Sequence record: PX645697.1
Source of the DNA: a phage
Length of the DNA stretch: 64,000 bases
Direction: 5' to 3' (one strand)
Position numbers and translations under genes: made by a program. Positions 53,315-62,885 of the stretch are shown here, piece after piece. Numbering within the stretch: position 1 is the first letter of the stretch; each line of letters begins with the position of its first letter. A model generated the notes under the pieces. The model searched no databases. It had not been told where the DNA came from and saw nothing but the letters and a program-made list of their open reading frames with translations.

Positions 53315-53518
53315 TTAGTAGAACGAACGAATTTCATCCCACACTTGTTCCTGTTCTTTCCTATAAAAAGAAAGTTGGGTCTTGAACATCTCCACTGATG
53401 ATTCAAAGTTTTTGGTTTGTGCAGCTTCAACGAAACGTTCATGTCGGTTGATTTTGCACCGTAGCATTAAATACTTGGCTTCAAGTCTCCGAAGAGCCTG
53501 CCTTTTCTCAAGATTCAC
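53315..53518 (-). CDS. hypothetical small protein
   Basis: 67-aa ORF; overlapping 53254..53442 ORF judged spurious. Confidence 0.4.
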   Translation of the reverse strand: MNLEKRQALRRLEAKYLMLRCKINRHERFVEAAQTKNFESSVEMFKTQLSFYRKEQEQVWDEIRSFY

Positions 53519-53927
53519 TTTTCAGATACTCTGACCAGTCGCCAGATTCAACCAGAACATCTTGTTCTTCGTCGATGTGATAAATCCAAGCGATCACAGT
53601 TTCACCGGAGTCCATCTTAACAGCAATCTGAGTACGCTGATAGAAGCTGTCTTCAGGGCTACGTTTGTTGTAACCTTCCAGACGGTCATACGGACCTTCC
53701 AGACCTGCTTTGTCAGTAGCAAACACTTCTACACGAACAGGCTTATTGTTATTGCTGTGTGCGAGAGAGATGCTCGGGAAGTAGGAACCACCGTAACGAA
53801 ACAGATCAAAGTTGTCTTCAGTCCAGCCTTCGCCAATAGACTTAGCACCAGCTCGATCATTAACTAAATAGTTAGCTTGACCACGACGAAGAGAACCATA
53901 AGTTGCTACGTAAATTACTTCTGACAT
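53508..53927 (-). CDS. gamma-glutamyl cyclotransferase-like (AIG2/GGACT fold) protein
   Basis: 139 aa; N-terminal YVATYGSLRRGQANY matches the YGSL.RG motif of AIG2-like cyclotransferases. Confidence 0.55.
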   Translation of the reverse strand: MSEVIYVATYGSLRRGQANYLVNDRAGAKSIGEGWTEDNFDLFRYGGSYFPSISLAHSNNNKPVRVEVFATDKAGLEGPYDRLEGYNKRSPEDSFYQRTQIAVKMDSGETVIAWIYHIDEEQDVLVESGDWSEYLKSES

Positions 53928-53965
53928 TATCTATACCTTTGTTGGTTTGTTTAGTTTATCCGAAC

Positions 53966-53989
53966 TAGCCTCCTCTTTCGAAGAGGCTA
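53966..53989 (-). promoter_or_regulatory. strong RNA hairpin (10-bp stem, GAAA tetraloop) without U-tract
   Basis: - strand TAGCCTCTTC-GAAA-GAGGAGGCTA between two genes. Confidence 0.4.
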
Positions 53990-53996
53990 AAGCAGA

Positions 53997-54182
53997 TTAC
54001 TCTGTAATAAAGATTTTGATTACACCGCAGATTGCTGCACTCTCAAATACTGCAACAGCTTCACTTCCCTGAAAGAAGGCCACTTTGCCGTCAGAGAAGT
54101 TAAACATGTCAGCATCTAGGTCCATAGCTCGCATTTCGCCAGCGGCATTTGTATCTTTAAACAGAACTTTATACTTATTCAC
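53997..54182 (-). CDS. hypothetical small protein
   Basis: 61-aa ORF, ATGA overlap. Confidence 0.4.
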   Translation of the reverse strand: MNKYKVLFKDTNAAGEMRAMDLDADMFNFSDGKVAFFQGSEAVAVFESAAICGVIKIFITE

Positions 54183-59898: not shown

Positions 59899-59907
59899 GA
59901 TAACCTC

Positions 59908-60714
59908 TTATGCTACCTGAAGGAGTTTGATCTGCTGGTCAGCTTCTTTAACGTTGTTCCCGTTAATGATTTCATGAAGCTTCTCAATCGGAAGGCGAGA
60001 GTGCAATGCCATCAGAGTGGACATATCACACTGCTGAACAACCTTGTCAACCTGATCGTAAACAAACTTACGGTTTTCACGATCGCTAATCCAGAAGTTA
60101 GACAGTGAACGGTATTCGATACCGTAGTCTTTATAGCGGATTGCAGATGCTTTGCCATAGAGTTCTTTACGGCGAGTATCTTTGTCCATAATCACTGCTG
60201 GGAGAGACAGGAAGTAGTCACACAGCACACCAAGCATCATCTGAGTTTGCAGAGTGATATCCAAAGCACCAACCACGCCAAGATGTACGTGACCACCGGC
60301 AGTACGAAGTCCCTTATTCTGAGAAGTCGGGGATGGATTCTTCTGACCAGTGAAAGCGTTGAAATCAGGAGTACACCCGAAGATGAACGCTGATTCATTG
60401 AAAGTCTTCATCTCTTCTTCAGTGAAGATGTGAGAGCTAACACCCGGAGCTGCTTCCATGTCCAGTTTGTTCAGGACATTGTTGGTGAGATCGATACCAC
60501 GTTGCATGTTATCGTTAAACGCTTCAAAACCGCTCTGTGGGTCGATATCAAACTCAGCCAGTACGTTGTCCTCTTGAAGACGTACATCCTTTGCCAGAGC
60601 GATCTTATCGTCCTTAGAACAGCCTAACAGACCAGCTACAGAGGTGATAATACCATTGCTGGTACGAACAAACATTTCAGGGTCAGAGCCGATAAGGAAT
60701 TTGCGCTTAGTCAT
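59908..60714 (-). CDS. COOH-NH2 ligase type-2-like protein
   Basis: 268 aa; N-terminal FLIGSDPEMFV and GGHVHLG motif. Confidence 0.45.
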   Translation of the reverse strand: MTKRKFLIGSDPEMFVRTSNGIITSVAGLLGCSKDDKIALAKDVRLQEDNVLAEFDIDPQSGFEAFNDNMQRGIDLTNNVLNKLDMEAAPGVSSHIFTEEEMKTFNESAFIFGCTPDFNAFTGQKNPSPTSQNKGLRTAGGHVHLGVVGALDITLQTQMMLGVLCDYFLSLPAVIMDKDTRRKELYGKASAIRYKDYGIEYRSLSNFWISDRENRKFVYDQVDKVVQQCDMSTLMALHSRLPIEKLHEIINGNNVKEADQQIKLLQVA

Positions 60715-61678
60715 TGTAATACTCCACTAGTTCAGAAAAGAGAGATGAGATTGTGTTACCAACTTCTTCAGTAGTAAGGCCAGAGCTTGGGCCAGTACGT
60801 TGAATCAGTCGGGCTGTAAAGTTTTGGACTGTAATGTTTTCCAACTTATTGTCTATTGCTTCACGTTTGTGACCATGACAGTTGGACCAGAGTCTTAACC
60901 ACTCTGACATTGTTTCATACTCGTCCGGGTCTTGATCTTTAGCATGAGCAAATCTTCGTAAGGCATCTTGGTTATGGTTACGAACATAACCATCCTTGTT
61001 GTCGCCAACACCGAAGGGGTTTTGAACCCATACTTGCTTCGTGTATTCATCAGAGTCTACAACCAAAGGAAGGAATGCTGCTGCTGACATATCGTTATTA
61101 ACAACAATAGAGGTGCTTTCGCTACTCCCATTAGCTCTTCCTCGTTGAGACCATCCACCGAAGAAGTCACGACCCAACCCAGCTAACACTAGAGCGATAC
61201 CGATGCGTTTACGCTTCAGCCACTCTTCCCTGTCTTCAATTCCTTCTGCTAGGAAATCCATTCCACGATATTGCCCTTCCAGAATACTACGAAAGAGCAT
61301 AAGTCCTGTGAAGATCTGATCTGCTGGATGCTCACGAAGGTTGACAGCAACACTATTCGCTGAAGTGATCGTAAATACGTCACGATAGCAAGACATGGAG
61401 TTCATAATATCTGCTGTTTCAACCAAATTCTTTTCAATATCAGATGTAACATGACCATGAAAAGAGTGAGTCCAGTAATTCAACATCTCCAGTTGCAAGT
61501 TGATATCACGGTTGAAGCGACGATAGCGCCCTTCTTCCGTGATAACTTCACCATTAATGTCATTTACACACTGGCCTTGCATGTAGTTGTGGATACCGAA
61601 GCACCCACGACCTAAGAACTTCTGTTCCCCTAAATCCTGTTGAAGATTAAGAGGTACGATCGTTGTGGAGATTGACAT
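60707..61678 (-). CDS. hypothetical protein (modification cluster member)
   Basis: 323-aa ORF. Confidence 0.5.
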   Translation of the reverse strand: MSISTTIVPLNLQQDLGEQKFLGRGCFGIHNYMQGQCVNDINGEVITEEGRYRRFNRDINLQLEMLNYWTHSFHGHVTSDIEKNLVETADIMNSMSCYRDVFTITSANSVAVNLREHPADQIFTGLMLFRSILEGQYRGMDFLAEGIEDREEWLKRKRIGIALVLAGLGRDFFGGWSQRGRANGSSESTSIVVNNDMSAAAFLPLVVDSDEYTKQVWVQNPFGVGDNKDGYVRNHNQDALRRFAHAKDQDPDEYETMSEWLRLWSNCHGHKREAIDNKLENITVQNFTARLIQRTGPSSGLTTEEVGNTISSLFSELVEYYND

Positions 61679-61688
61679 AACTAACCTT

Positions 61689-62885
61689 TTATTTTCCTAA
61701 AAATAATCCGCTCATAATACCATCCCACTCAGAGGATGGAATCACTGAATACACTGAACTTTGGTCCAGAGTTCCACTACTAAATCGTTGAACGATGTTA
61801 TAGATGTTGAACAGATCTTTAGTCTCAGCACGAATGCCGTAGATTAGACTATTAGCTGTTCTTTCATCTTTAGACACTCGACGGGTAAAGTTAATCAGAA
61901 GGTTGTCACATTTCAGGATTTCTGATTCACTCTCTACTAAGTCGGGGTGCATCACCGGCAAGAACATCGAGTTATTAACTCGTAATTCTGCTGTTTCATC
62001 ATTCTCATAATGAATCCACTTAAAATCTTCATCACGGAAATGACCACACCCATCTCTATATGACTGTTGACGCCAAGGCACTTGAAATGCTTCAGCATAC
62101 TTATTAGCCATGCCAACTGTAAACAGCGACGCTGGGAAGATACAAGCATCCCAATCATTACCAACCAGAGTTGCTTTCGTTTCACCTAAGAGGTTAGTGT
62201 AAGTGCTAACCATTCGTGAGTAAACGTAAGCCTGAAGAATTGTCCATCCTTCAACCAACCATTTATGGAGGAAGGTTTCAACTTGACTCTCTTCATCTTC
62301 ACAATAGAAGGTTCGATCTAACATCAAATAGAATAGACAACGATCAGCAGGAACATTTTCAGTTGCTACCCCCATAAAACCTTTATCGTGCCAGCGTAAA
62401 CAGGAGGGACGATCTTTGTCCACAAATGCTTCCATAGCTTCCAGTACAGCACGAGGTGTGGTTCGATGTTCAGGGTTTTTGTCGTTCCAACGTTCGATGT
62501 TATTCTTGGGAGGTGTGTCTTCATCTTCATACGAACACCAACTTAAAGCTTCAGCTACATGCTTTTCATCACGCCAACGTCTAAAACCTAACATCTTCAT
62601 ATGAGTTCCGGAGTTCCAGATATGCTTGATTTTACACATATCCATCTCTCGGCTTAACAGGAACTCTTCCCCATCAGCACTACGAACGTTAGCTTCTTCA
62701 TGCCACACTCGAACGTGCATATTCCATCCATGAGTTGCCTCATACATGTTAGGGTCGAAGTATTCATCTTCGTAATCATCTTCATCAACGCCACCATTAT
62801 AGTTGCGAAGCTGAAGGAACCCATAACAAGGAGGGTGGACCGTTAAAACATTACCTTCAGTATCTTCTAATGTTACTGGAAACAT
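61689..62885 (-). CDS. hypothetical protein (modification cluster member)
   Basis: 398-aa ORF. Confidence 0.5.
   Translation of the reverse strand: MFPVTLEDTEGNVLTVHPPCYGFLQLRNYNGGVDEDDYEDEYFDPNMYEATHGWNMHVRVWHEEANVRSADGEEFLLSREMDMCKIKHIWNSGTHMKMLGFRRWRDEKHVAEALSWCSYEDEDTPPKNNIERWNDKNPEHRTTPRAVLEAMEAFVDKDRPSCLRWHDKGFMGVATENVPADRCLFYLMLDRTFYCEDEESQVETFLHKWLVEGWTILQAYVYSRMVSTYTNLLGETKATLVGNDWDACIFPASLFTVGMANKYAEAFQVPWRQQSYRDGCGHFRDEDFKWIHYENDETAELRVNNSMFLPVMHPDLVESESEILKCDNLLINFTRRVSKDERTANSLIYGIRAETKDLFNIYNIVQRFSSGTLDQSSVYSVIPSSEWDGIMSGLFLGK

Follow-up and report, generated by a model that had tools for sequence, protein, structure and literature searches.

The phiEco32-type amidoligase cassette, a candidate phage pathway to an amide-linked gamma-glutamyl compound

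Publications from 2008-2009 onwards describe a set of genes in phiEco32-like coliphages known as the amidoligase cassette. Modification of peptidoglycan peptides is its usual published conjectured role, and the cytoplasmic peptidoglycan stem-peptide precursor (gamma-D-Glu, meso-DAP) is the sole acceptor proposed in print. Marine-phage papers call genes of the cassette auxiliary metabolic or host-material recycling genes.

We analysed a 64,000-nucleotide stretch of phage DNA (sequence record PX645697.1), referred to below as the window. Its minus-strand segment 53508-62885 holds 1:1 orthologues of phiEco32 gp88 to gp77 with protein identities of 89-100% and is the phiEco32-type 'amidoligase cassette' (gp77-gp88 orthologues) already described. 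The original prediction, read from the letters of the window, had placed a cluster of amide-bond-forming enzymes here, and every element it named is present; that the cassette was already known and named went unrecognised. New here is that cassette relatives occur on 550 viral contigs and essentially never in cellular genomes, that GGCT and peptidase C26 stand in for one another among related loci, and that two 'orphans', the gp85-like and gp87-like proteins, are conserved parts of the cassette core on either side of the COOH-NH2 ligase.

Enzymes of the cassette

Open reading frames and strand were taken from an ORF list, and families were assigned by Pfam, PHROG, NCBIfam and profile comparison (hhalign). 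Locus counts rest on 79 viral loci fetched with COOH-NH2 ligase relatives. All cassette genes given below lie on the minus strand.

Three proteins resemble ligases. The COOH-NH2 ligase type 2 (gp86-like, 268 aa, 59908..60714) matches PHROG 3815 (E 4e-118) and Pfam PF14395 (E 2.4e-8; score 34 bits, cut-off 25), a family named after phiEco32 itself ('Phage phiEco32-like COOH.NH2 ligase-type 2'). Residues Q47, D49, E54, H142, H144, R182, E200 and R202 are invariant over seven phage lineages. Sequence and profile searches for a solved relative found none; the literature places the protein among carboxylate-amine ligases of the glutamine-synthetase/GCS2 type. The putative amidoligase (Amidoligase_2, gp84-like, 367 aa, 58181..59284) matches PF12224 (E 3.8e-8; score 33.9 bits, cut-off 22) and PHROG 7469 (E 2e-158) and was found in 79/79 related loci. 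Its G-x-E-x-E-x-E strand and H95, H97, R130, E186 and R188 are invariant over seven lineages, and a search for a solved structural relative gave none; Iyer et al. 2009 class the family as glutamine-synthetase-like.

The third, a RimK-like ATP-grasp ligase (gp80-like, 397 aa, 54434..55627), consists of a ligase domain (about residues 1-265) joined by an acidic linker to a small C-terminal domain, the latter extension being confined to the Kuravirus and 7-11 lineages. A single-sequence Pfam scan stayed below cut-offs; the protein matches PHROG 2599 (E 3e-187), and a six-phage profile hit solved RimK/alpha-L-glutamate ligase structures over about 200 residues (E about 1e-5). Its E-x-N and GHSG-G-I motifs are invariant. 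In NCBIfam, MptN and the RimK family score best, both far under their own cut-offs.

The class-II (Ntn) glutamine amidotransferase (gp83-like, 676 aa, 56071..58101) was listed too short (56071-57762) because its start codon is ATT. This codon, at 58101, follows TAG-AAA and sits right before the Cys1 codon, as in the phiEco32 annotation. The full-length protein matches GATase_6 (E 1e-14; score 55 bits, cut-off 27), begins with (M)CGIVLAGG, so that Cys1 is present, and has a HSRHATKG...NAHPF...HNG motif that aligns with GlmS. The GATase domain (about residues 1-220) is followed by a middle region without assignment and by C-terminal zinc ribbons with four CxxC motifs (residues 440-644); Cys1 is kept in all orthologues and the paired CxxC ends in most. 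RefSeq calls the protein 'GlmS', which over-annotates it: it lacks an SIS or any other acceptor domain and scores far below the GlmS cut-off.

The last cassette gene (gp77-like, 139 aa, 53508..53927) encodes a gamma-glutamyl(amine) cyclotransferase (GGCT) of the GGACT/AIG2/YtfP type, with a YGSL motif at the N-terminus and matches to PF06094 (E 3.4e-17, profile positions 2-119 of 120) and PHROG 2520 (E 1e-44). The enzyme families named in the original prediction, ATP-grasp included, are borne out.

Accessory proteins, gene coupling and spread

The proteins of 398, 323 and 205 aa are without a Pfam family, in line with the original description of proteins lacking a recognisable motif. The first cassette gene encodes the largest of them (gp88-like, 61689..62885), a phage-only orphan fold. 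The gp87-like protein (323 aa, 60707..61678), whose gene lies directly upstream of the COOH-NH2 ligase gene and overlaps it by 8 nt, gave no match in a Pfam scan; its profile matches that of a protein family encoded immediately upstream of the ligase gene at 26 other viral loci (hhalign 95.9%, E 5e-9, 209 columns). It differs from phiEco32 by 22 nonsynonymous and 17 synonymous codons and evolves faster than the enzymes. The gp85-like gene (205 aa, 59281..59898), between both carboxylate-amine ligases and with a 4-nt overlap with the next gene, likewise gave no Pfam match for its product, and its profile matches that of a family encoded immediately downstream of the ligase gene at 28 other viral loci (hhalign 99.6%, E 1e-24). 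Its AlphaFold model was poor (pLDDT 58), and a fold search with it gave no match.

Among the small proteins, the DUF7195 protein (77 aa, 55835..56068; PF23825, E 1.6e-17) has a homologue at the same position in phage 7-11 (gp101, 40% identity). The gp81-like protein (74 aa, 55630..55854; PHROG 13464) is 100% identical to phiEco32 gp81 and belongs to a family seen in 8/79 related loci, while the gp78-like protein (61 aa, 53997..54182; 91.8% identity to phiEco32 gp78) had no match in a family search. The 82-aa frame (54179..54427) is no unknown member of the enzyme set, because it is 100% identical to phiEco32 gp79, a characterised protein that inhibits transcription by host sigma-70 and activates the phage sigma factor gp36. 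It is missing from phages 7-11 and GAP52, both cassette carriers, and is embedded in the cluster but outside the enzyme pathway.

The tight coupling claimed for the cluster holds: apart from two wider gaps (79 and 69 nt), junctions range from -20 to +11 nt. Synonymous to nonsynonymous codon differences from phiEco32 (GATase 36:5, COOH-NH2 ligase 30:2, gp85 16:1, amidoligase 22:5) show that purifying selection acts on the cassette enzymes. Gene order is constant, always just upstream of the primase/helicase gene (51498-53288 in the window), in Kuravirus, Bruynoghevirus PaP3, Zobellviridae PA11 and CVT22, phage 7-11, phiM6 and Vp_R1. All cassette proteins are acidic to neutral, and hydropathy gave no clear membrane-spanning segment in any enzyme. 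Proteomics of phage SU10 detected the ATP-grasp protein, GATase and GGCT as 'early gene products'; a search within the cassette for a phage-sigma promoter motif found none.

The 550 viral contigs all encode relatives of the COOH-NH2 ligase, and amidoligase, ATP-grasp and class-II GATase occur together in 70/79 loci. Representative genomes of 100,044 species yielded just 15 COOH-NH2 ligase loci, of which 13 sit on contigs of 68 kb or less assembled from metagenomes and the other 2 on tiny scaffolds from the assembly of an isolate.

GGCT is encoded in 44/79 loci and peptidase C26 (Pfam, E 3e-23) in 26/79; one locus has both and 69/79 have either. Enzymes of the GGACT and PuuD types both cleave gamma-glutamyl amide bonds, so the pathway seems to require that step, and the near-exclusivity of GGCT and C26 suggests that the pathway attaches a gamma-glutamyl group and later takes it off. 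The exchange tracks phage lineage, so it may reflect few independent events, and the 7-11 lineage has neither enzyme; both observations speak against the add-and-remove reading.

Candidate products and acceptors

Our best explanation, which we hold tentatively, is that the cassette encodes an early, soluble, phage-only pathway, driven by glutamine and glutamate, which builds and then trims an amide-linked gamma-glutamyl small molecule or short peptide on a metabolite rather than on DNA. Our analysis shows to which families the proteins belong, that catalytic residues are conserved, that the genes are coupled and under purifying selection, that the cassette is confined to phages, and that GGCT and C26 replace one another; the published SU10 proteomics shows protein expression. 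The chemistry of each step, the step order and the acceptor are what we infer. The gp84, gp86 and gp80 ligases would each activate a carboxylate with ATP and couple it to an amine, glutamate or ammonia, with gp87 and gp85 as conserved partners flanking gp86. The Cys1 Ntn enzyme gp83 would then either supply ammonia from glutamine to one of the ligases or perform an EgtC-like hydrolysis of a gamma-glutamyl amide. Finally, gp77 would take off the gamma-glutamyl group as 5-oxoproline, freeing the amine. Such a gamma-glutamyl handle, put on and later taken off, follows the logic of PuuA/PuuD, BtrJ/BtrG and EgtA/EgtC. Against this pathway, none of the cassette proteins carries a peptidoglycan-related domain, the zinc ribbons could bind nucleic acid or protein, and the constant adjacency to replication genes may reflect functional coupling rather than shared module ancestry.

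Rather unlikely, in our estimate, is protein glutamylation or peptide tagging, in which the RimK-like and other ligases mark a host or phage protein (e.g. ribosomal, RNA polymerase or replication) and GGCT and GATase trim or reverse the mark. Iyer et al. 2009 treat the ligase families partly as enzymes of protein peptide modification. The solved structures closest to the ATP-grasp protein belong to RimK, which attaches glutamate to ribosomal protein S6, but the phage protein scores far under both the family and the equivalog cut-off for RimK. Several small conserved proteins inside the cassette, including DUF7195 and gp81, together with the host-takeover factor gp79 of the Kuravirus version and zinc ribbons that could dock a protein substrate, would fit tagging; the small proteins, however, are not conserved across cassette lineages. 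No protein with a conserved acidic C-terminus emerged as a candidate substrate, and a reading of the sequences traces the recurring 'KGI' ends of the small proteins to the Shine-Dalgarno sequence of the next gene. Moreover, the substrates of GGACT-type enzymes are gamma-glutamyl amines, not alpha-linked polyglutamate.

DNA or nucleotide hypermodification, the headline of the original prediction, strikes us as doubtful. The ligases would here put glutamate, another amino acid or ammonia on a carboxyl- or amine-bearing base, in DNA or the dNTP pool, shielding the genome from restriction. CmoY provides a precedent, ligating an amide onto phage DNA with ATP to give 5cxmC-glycine, and some of its relatives have a glutamine-hydrolysing domain. 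Amidoligase and glutamine-amidotransferase genes co-occur in viromes with thymidine-hypermodification (5-HMUDK/aGPT-Pplase) clusters, and Gordonclarkvirinae, for which no modification pathway is known, have been described as 'remarkably resistant to RM systems'; both facts also speak against a metabolite acceptor. The position beside replication genes, early expression and the zinc ribbons ending the GATase would fit as well. However, other causes can give broad restriction resistance, and the BASEL authors link it to dCTP deaminase and a nucleotidyltransferase, not to the amidoligase cassette. Pfam and NCBIfam revealed no enzyme creating a base handle in the window or the phiEco32 annotation (dUMP/dCMP hydroxymethylase, 5-HMU DNA kinase, aGPT-Pplase, C5-methyltransferase, CmoA/CmoX, DpdA/TGT, TET/JBP). 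The frequent neighbour clusters of the 79 loci, read or Pfam-scanned, include no recognisable DNA-modification protein; those with recognisable function are replication, nucleotide-metabolism or structural proteins. Virion DNA of phage tf, which carries the cassette, is cut by RsaI, HpaI, EcoRV, SmaI and HaeIII and has been cloned. The window avoids CCWGG (4 sites observed, 93 expected), PstI (0, 20) and RGGNCCY (0, 21) like unmodified T7 and unlike hypermodified T4, and the PaP3 locus also avoids palindromes. EcoRV sites, in contrast, are not avoided (37 observed, about 21 expected; T7, 0 and 7), which favours hypermodification. The dCTP deaminase (49056-49589; PF22769, E 4e-34) and ThyX (44534-45217; PF02511, E 3e-43) lie nearby as predicted. 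Their supposed role as suppliers of a modified pyrimidine finds no support: ThyX scores above the NCBIfam equivalog cut-off, both enzymes look canonical, and together they form an ordinary dTTP supply route.

An auxiliary metabolic module that recycles nitrogen, glutamate or glutathione, breaking down or re-routing host gamma-glutamyl compounds and glutamine to feed nucleotide and protein synthesis with no dedicated product, would suit the glutamine, glutamate or gamma-glutamyl chemistry of each recognisable enzyme, the nucleotide-metabolism neighbours and the marine-phage label, but is improbable, as simple catabolism hardly accounts for three ligases that consume ATP or for the two to three conserved accessory proteins found only in phages, and the COOH-NH2 ligase, unlike typical host-derived auxiliary metabolic genes, has no host counterparts.

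The evidence as a whole points away from DNA modification as the role of the cassette. The original statement that this is an amide-bond-forming set with a function not readable from sequence alone was right, and its fallback, the making of a peptide-like small molecule, comes near the metabolite pathway that we prefer. For that pathway the stem-peptide precursor is one candidate acceptor. The named hosts of cassette-bearing phages, among the matches listed, are Gram-negative bacteria, which would fit a shared metabolite target.

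The phiEco32-type amidoligase cassette and its distribution

The genes at 53508-62885 on the - strand form an already known and named unit, the phiEco32-type amidoligase cassette, here carried by a phage closely related to phiEco32. Megablast with this interval matched 102 phage records, 66 of them with a query coverage of at least 80%, and the best matches were Escherichia phages of the genus Kuravirus (Gordonclarkvirinae), phiEco32 among them, at 95–97% DNA identity. The gp77–gp88 cassette of phiEco32, reportedly described by Savalia et al. in 2008, is matched in the window by one-to-one orthologues in identical order, with 89–100% protein identity. 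Nothing material differs between the two cassettes, and the window phage is a further isolate of the same genus. Codon differences relative to phiEco32 indicate that the cassette enzymes are under purifying selection.

The original prediction of a tightly coupled series of amide-bond-forming enzymes was borne out. The ORFs follow one another without interruption, with junctions of -20 to +11 nt at all but two positions, and Pfam, PHROG and profile searches returned the anticipated families: GGACT, Amidoligase_2, COOH-NH2_lig, GATase_6 and ATP-grasp. Primase/helicase, dCTP deaminase and ThyX likewise lie where they had been placed. The enzyme set thus stands, with one correction: the 82-aa ORF corresponds to phiEco32 gp79, whose role as a regulator of host RNA polymerase has been characterised, and is therefore not an unknown enzyme partner. 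We also considered small proteins ending in '...LKGI' as ubiquitin-/LysW-like C-terminal tags; this was rejected, since these proteins lack conservation and the DNA encoding the motif doubles as the Shine-Dalgarno sequence of the following gene. A PADLOC search for defence systems returned no match.

Class-II glutamine amidotransferase (GAT-II), Amidoligase_2, COOH-NH2 ligase type 2 and RimK-like ATP-grasp genes are co-linear in the window, in the phiEco32 order (gp83, gp84, gp86, gp80). Cassette gene order is also kept in Bruynoghevirus PaP3, Zobellviridae PA11 and CVT22, Salmonella phage 7-11, Sinorhizobium phage phiM6 and Vibrio phage Vp_R1. In all six of these lineages, as in the window, the cassette is located just upstream of the primase/helicase gene (51498-53288), which in the window is found one small ORF downstream of the cyclotransferase gene. 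Elsewhere in the window, 46803-47402 encodes a Dps/ferritin-like DNA-binding protein (Pfam Ferritin, E 3e-7), and a thioredoxin (gp65) is annotated beside ThyX in phiEco32; together they make up a redox/iron theme that is unusual in a podophage.

In IMG/VR, relatives of the COOH-NH2 ligase were found on 550 contigs. Among 79 loci that were fetched, the amidoligase is present in all 79 and the ATP-grasp protein in 70, and amidoligase, ATP-grasp and GAT-II occur together in 70/79. Carriers belong to several podophage families, and their hosts are Escherichia, Salmonella, Pseudomonas, Vibrio, marine and rhizobial bacteria. A search covering 100,044 bacterial and archaeal species, each by its representative genome, yielded only 15 COOH-NH2 ligase loci. 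Of these, 13 are on metagenome-assembled contigs no longer than 68 kb and the other two on tiny scaffolds belonging to a single isolate assembly, and none of them provided a native bacterial context. Since so few loci were found, and on contigs and scaffolds of this kind, the COOH-NH2 ligase family is effectively phage-exclusive.

Ligases, amidotransferase and phage-only partners

The ATP-grasp protein (gp80) belongs to PHROG 2599 (E 3e-187). Its single sequence falls below the Pfam cut-off (17.7 vs 24 bits), and a profile built from six lineages matches solved RimK structures (E 1e-5), with K85, GHSG-G-I, E157-x-R-x-H and E241-x-N243-x-APG invariant across the six. The alpha-L-glutamate ligases RimK, LysX and MptN are its nearest solved and curated relatives, yet it scores 16–33 bits against these families, far under their cut-offs of 143–350 bits. 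With RimK models in particular, 27.7 bits were obtained against 143 required for rimK_fam, and 16.2 against 331 for PRK10446. Because of these scores, the phiEco32 RefSeq name 'ribosomal protein S6 glutaminyl transferase' is over-specific and unjustified. Residues 41–200 of the protein (window 55027-55507) form a divergent patch relative to phiEco32, in which the N-terminal and central domains reach 45 differences per 120 nt at most, while the rest of the gene and the neighbouring genes differ by 2–3%. The patch looks like a recombination mosaic hitting the presumed substrate-binding part. In Vp_R1 the homologue is enlarged to 750 aa (14445-16697 of the Vp_R1 locus L008).

The class-II (Ntn) glutamine amidotransferase (gp83; 56071-58101, - strand) matches GATase_6 over the full-length protein with E 1e-14 (55 bits vs a cut-off of 27). 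Its N-terminus reads (M)CGIV, and its HSRHATKG...NAHPF...HNG motif aligns with the GlmS active site. Cys1 is present in 8/8 GAT-II orthologues examined, most of which end in paired CxxC motifs; the C-terminal part of the window protein contains four. The C-terminal 450 aa gave no family match beyond zinc-ribbon traces. Compared with phiEco32, the gene carries 36 synonymous and 5 nonsynonymous codon differences. The score against NCBIfam glmS is 35.8 bits (cut-off 418) and no SIS domain was detected, so the phiEco32 RefSeq name 'L-glutamine-D-fructose-6-phosphate aminotransferase' is over-specific as well. Against asn_synth the protein reaches 21 bits (cut-off 267), and no Asn-synthetase domain was detected. 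Among other class-II domains in NCBIfam it is weakly similar to EgtC, at a score far under the EgtC cut-off.

The start of this gene is unusual. The ORF list places it at position 57762, at a TTG, and a protein begun there would lack Cys1; we rejected this position, since the open frame extends further, to the ATT at 58101 next to the Cys1 codon, which is also the start annotated in phiEco32. The start is thus a non-canonical ATT (58099-58101, - strand) immediately before the catalytic Cys codon. The stretch upstream, to 58180, contains the Shine-Dalgarno sequence AGGTGGA, a mini-ORF of 9 codons (ATGAAAGGGTTTACCCTTCAGGTGGATTAG) and a short hairpin (AAGGGTttACCCTT). In the translated PA11, CVT22 and phiM6 orthologues the first residue is Leu or Val, which implies that non-ATG starts directly before the Cys codon are used there too. 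The ATT start and the elements upstream of it may reflect deliberately low or regulated translation.

Both remaining ligases pass their family thresholds: Amidoligase_2 (gp84) at 33.9 bits (PF12224, cut-off 22, E 3.8e-8), with E31, E33, E35, H95, H97, E186 and R188 invariant, and COOH-NH2 ligase type 2 (gp86) at 34 bits (PF14395, cut-off 25, E 2.4e-8; PHROG 3815, E 4e-118). The latter family is named 'Phage phiEco32-like COOH.NH2 ligase-type 2'. PDB sequence and profile searches with the two proteins returned no solved relative. In 28 other loci the gene that immediately follows the ligase belongs to the gp85 (205 aa) family (hhalign 99.6%, E 1e-24), and in 26 other loci the one that immediately precedes it belongs to the gp87 (323 aa) family (hhalign 95.9%, E 5e-9). 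The gp85 model is poor (pLDDT 58), with weak, non-significant Tudor/chromo-like matches. For gp88, the predicted fold is confident (pLDDT 88) and has no PDB match; its similarity to gp87 is weak, and its only other look-alikes are uncharacterised phage proteins, several of which come from phages known to carry the cassette.

Exchange of gamma-glutamyl-cleaving enzymes and a candidate pathway

A clue to the mechanism comes from the last gene of the cassette, gp77 (53508-53927, - strand), which encodes a GGACT/AIG2-like cyclotransferase (GGCT; PF06094, E 3.4e-17, 63.6 bits vs a cut-off of 22.8, profile positions 2–119 of 120). Its sequence VATYGSLRRG contains the N-terminal YG(S/T)L motif of GGACT. 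GGCT is present in 44/79 loci, and a peptidase C26/class-I GATase (Pfam E 3e-23) in 26/79. One or the other is found in 69 loci and both together in a single one, and the replacement pattern tracks phage lineage. Both enzyme types, as exemplified by GGACT and PuuD, cleave gamma-glutamyl amide bonds. Most simply, gamma-glutamyl cleavage would be a required step of the pathway that lineages fill with different enzymes.

The 7-11-like lineage has neither GGCT nor peptidase C26. The amidoligase of phage 7-11 (gp103, 10378-12081 of the 7-11 locus L004) carries a 165-aa N-terminal extension with no family match; the idea that it is a fused GGCT or C26 domain was tested and ruled out.

In several known pathways an ATP-dependent ligase of glutamine-synthetase, GCS or ATP-grasp type adds a gamma-glutamyl group as a handle, and a partner enzyme later removes it: PuuA/PuuD in putrescine use, BtrJ/BtrG in butirosin and EgtA/EgtC in ergothioneine synthesis. 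The removing enzyme is a peptidase C26 (PuuD), a GGCT-fold cyclotransferase (BtrG) or a class-II GATase-like hydrolase (EgtC), and all three types are found across cassette lineages. Two carboxylate-amine ligases, a RimK-like ligase, an Ntn amidotransferase and the GGCT/C26 exchange would, taken together, fit the same logic of a gamma-glutamyl group added and later removed. This likeness is one of enzyme types and not of demonstrated orthology, scores against EgtC, RimK and MptN being far under cut-offs. Unlike the handle pathways, the cassette contains three ligases and phage-only accessory proteins, and lacks a carrier protein, an oxidase or another tailoring enzyme.

Our tentative reading is that the cassette encodes a pathway which is expressed early, works in the cytosol on glutamine and glutamate as its driving substrates, and would build a gamma-glutamyl-containing amide product on a non-DNA acceptor before trimming it. 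In phage HP1, cassette genes are expressed immediately after infection, and proteomics of phage SU10 places the ATP-grasp protein, the GATase and the YtfP/GGCT protein among the early gene products.

In the stem peptide of peptidoglycan, a glutamine amidotransferase and an ATP-dependent ligase (MurT/GatD, AsnB1/LtsA) amidate the carboxylates of D-iso-Glu or meso-DAP. This chemistry underlies the published conjecture that the cassette acts on the cell wall. However, MurT has a Mur-ligase fold, GatD is a class-I GATase and LtsA is of the asparagine-synthetase type, while the cassette has no Mur ligase or Asn-synthetase domain; no peptidoglycan-related domain was detected by Pfam or NCBIfam in any cassette protein. 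As relayed by later papers, Iyer et al. (2009) proposed cell-wall modification by the amidoligase and GATase of phiEco32 as a means to block superinfection. Work on marine RIO-1-like phages (Hardies 2013, Duhaime 2017) names the same genes, seven in all, as a 'peptidoglycan modification cassette' and lists RIO-1, phiEco32, 7-11, PA11, tf, MR299-2, LUZ24, PaP3 and CW02 as carriers. A peptidoglycan precursor is the sole acceptor proposed in print.

DNA modification, other roles and significance

The original prediction presented the cassette as a candidate nucleotide or DNA hypermodification system. It would then be the missing DNA-protection pathway of Gordonclarkvirinae, attaching an amide-linked group (glutamyl, aminoacyl or carboxamide) to a base of the phage DNA during replication or to a dNTP; DNA or base recognition would fall to the zinc-ribbon GATase together with gp85, gp87 and gp88, the proteins of orphan fold. 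Handle enzymes were not found, virion DNA of a cassette carrier is cut by restriction enzymes and site avoidance is T7-like, and we consider a DNA target unlikely.

In favour of such a pathway, according to BASEL 2025, Gordonclarkvirinae are remarkably resistant to restriction-modification and have no known modification pathway or inhibitor. The BASEL authors, however, attribute a possible role in this resistance to the dCTP deaminase and a nucleotidyltransferase, not to the cassette, and single out the homologue of gp73 as a possible DNA-modification factor. In the window this 467-aa protein (49599-51002, - strand) has a weak match to the PolyA_pol/CCA-adding-enzyme head domain (E 0.002). Its gene sits between those for dCTP deaminase and an exonuclease, and the protein was detected in SU10 proteomics.

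Two known systems provide chemical precedents. In Synechococcus phage S-B43 (CmoA/CmoX/CmoY, 2025; carboxymethylcytosine-glycine), ATP-dependent amide ligation onto phage DNA by CmoY has been demonstrated, and some CmoY relatives carry a class-II glutamine-hydrolysing domain. CmoY is, however, an AMP-forming enzyme of the asparagine-synthetase type, neither ATP-grasp nor glutamine-synthetase-like as the cassette ligases are, and its system requires the Cx-SAM synthase CmoA and the C5-methyltransferase homologue CmoX. No CmoA or methyltransferase is annotated in phiEco32, and neither CmoA nor CmoX was found among the scanned window proteins. In viromes, amidoligase and glutaminotransferase genes (Pfam matches) sometimes accompany thymidine-hypermodification clusters (5-HMUDK and aGPT-Pplase; phages M6, ViI and SP10). 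The enzymes that define these clusters and supply the base handle, namely dUMP hydroxymethylase (or TET/JBP), 5-hmdU DNA kinase and aGPT-Pplase, gave no Pfam or NCBIfam match in the cassette and its scanned neighbours, a set that takes in some but not all small ORFs of the window; nor do thymidine-hypermodification enzymes occur in the phiEco32 annotation or the frequent neighbour clusters of the 79 loci. The recognisable neighbours in these loci are replication, nucleotide-metabolism or structural genes.

ThyX (44534-45217, - strand) lacks the textbook RHR signature, reading ARQLGKHQVGFSWNEMSRRY where Thermotoga maritima has ARQWFRHRIA-SYNELSGRY, with RHR replaced by KHQ. We rejected this variant as a sign of a modified pyrimidine and did not count ThyX in favour of a modified base, because KHQ with an extra Arg (SRRY) is typical of a large subclade of ThyX proteins, and because the window protein scores above the equivalog cut-off of NCBIfam thyX. 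Of the 150 closest cluster representatives, 120 had a matchable motif, with KHQ in 67 and RHR in one; those displayed carry SRRY.

Restriction data and site usage point both ways. Virion DNA of phage tf, a cassette carrier, was cut by RsaI, HpaI, EcoRV, SmaI and HaeIII and cloned. Sites in the window are depleted for CCWGG (4 observed vs about 93–94 expected), PstI (0 vs 20), RGGNCCY (0 vs 21) and GATC (134 vs 311), and those of BamHI and EcoRI are strongly avoided. Avoidance of CCWGG and PstI sites is shared with unmodified T7 and not with T4 (56 observed vs 55 expected and 16 vs 10, respectively). Across all 6-mer palindromes the window takes an intermediate place, the fraction with z below -2 being 0.28 in the window, 0.33 in T7 and 0.09 in T4. 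On the other side, EcoRV sites are not avoided (37 vs about 21 expected; 0 vs 7 in T7), and neither are several other palindromes with AT-only cores; SspI sites are over-represented (48 vs 22) and DraI sites are at expectation (28 vs 23). Non-avoidance of EcoRV and AT-core sites is in line with these phages being actively protected in some way. Taken with the restriction resistance reported in print, the uneven site usage hints that whatever protects the DNA is not a blanket cytosine modification.

Protein glutamylation or tagging is suggested by the presence of a RimK-like ligase, but a search for a conserved protein substrate found none, and scores of this enzyme are far under RimK cut-offs. 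A pure recycling role fits the glutamine/glutamate theme of the enzymes but leaves three ATP-consuming ligases and conserved phage-only accessory proteins unexplained.

The cassette is widespread, nearly confined to phages and under purifying selection, and in the searchable literature no experimental study of its substrate or product was found some seventeen years after its first description. If DNA were modified, this would explain the restriction resistance of Gordonclarkvirinae, phages that are used in phage-therapy collections, and would define a new hypermodification route that relies on ATP-grasp and glutamine-synthetase-like ligases and that hundreds of viral contigs encode. If instead the cassette makes a gamma-glutamyl metabolite, as we tentatively favour, or alters cell-wall precursors, lytic phages would manipulate their hosts in a new way, and the cassette would supply ligase families that are uncharacterised and without solved structures.
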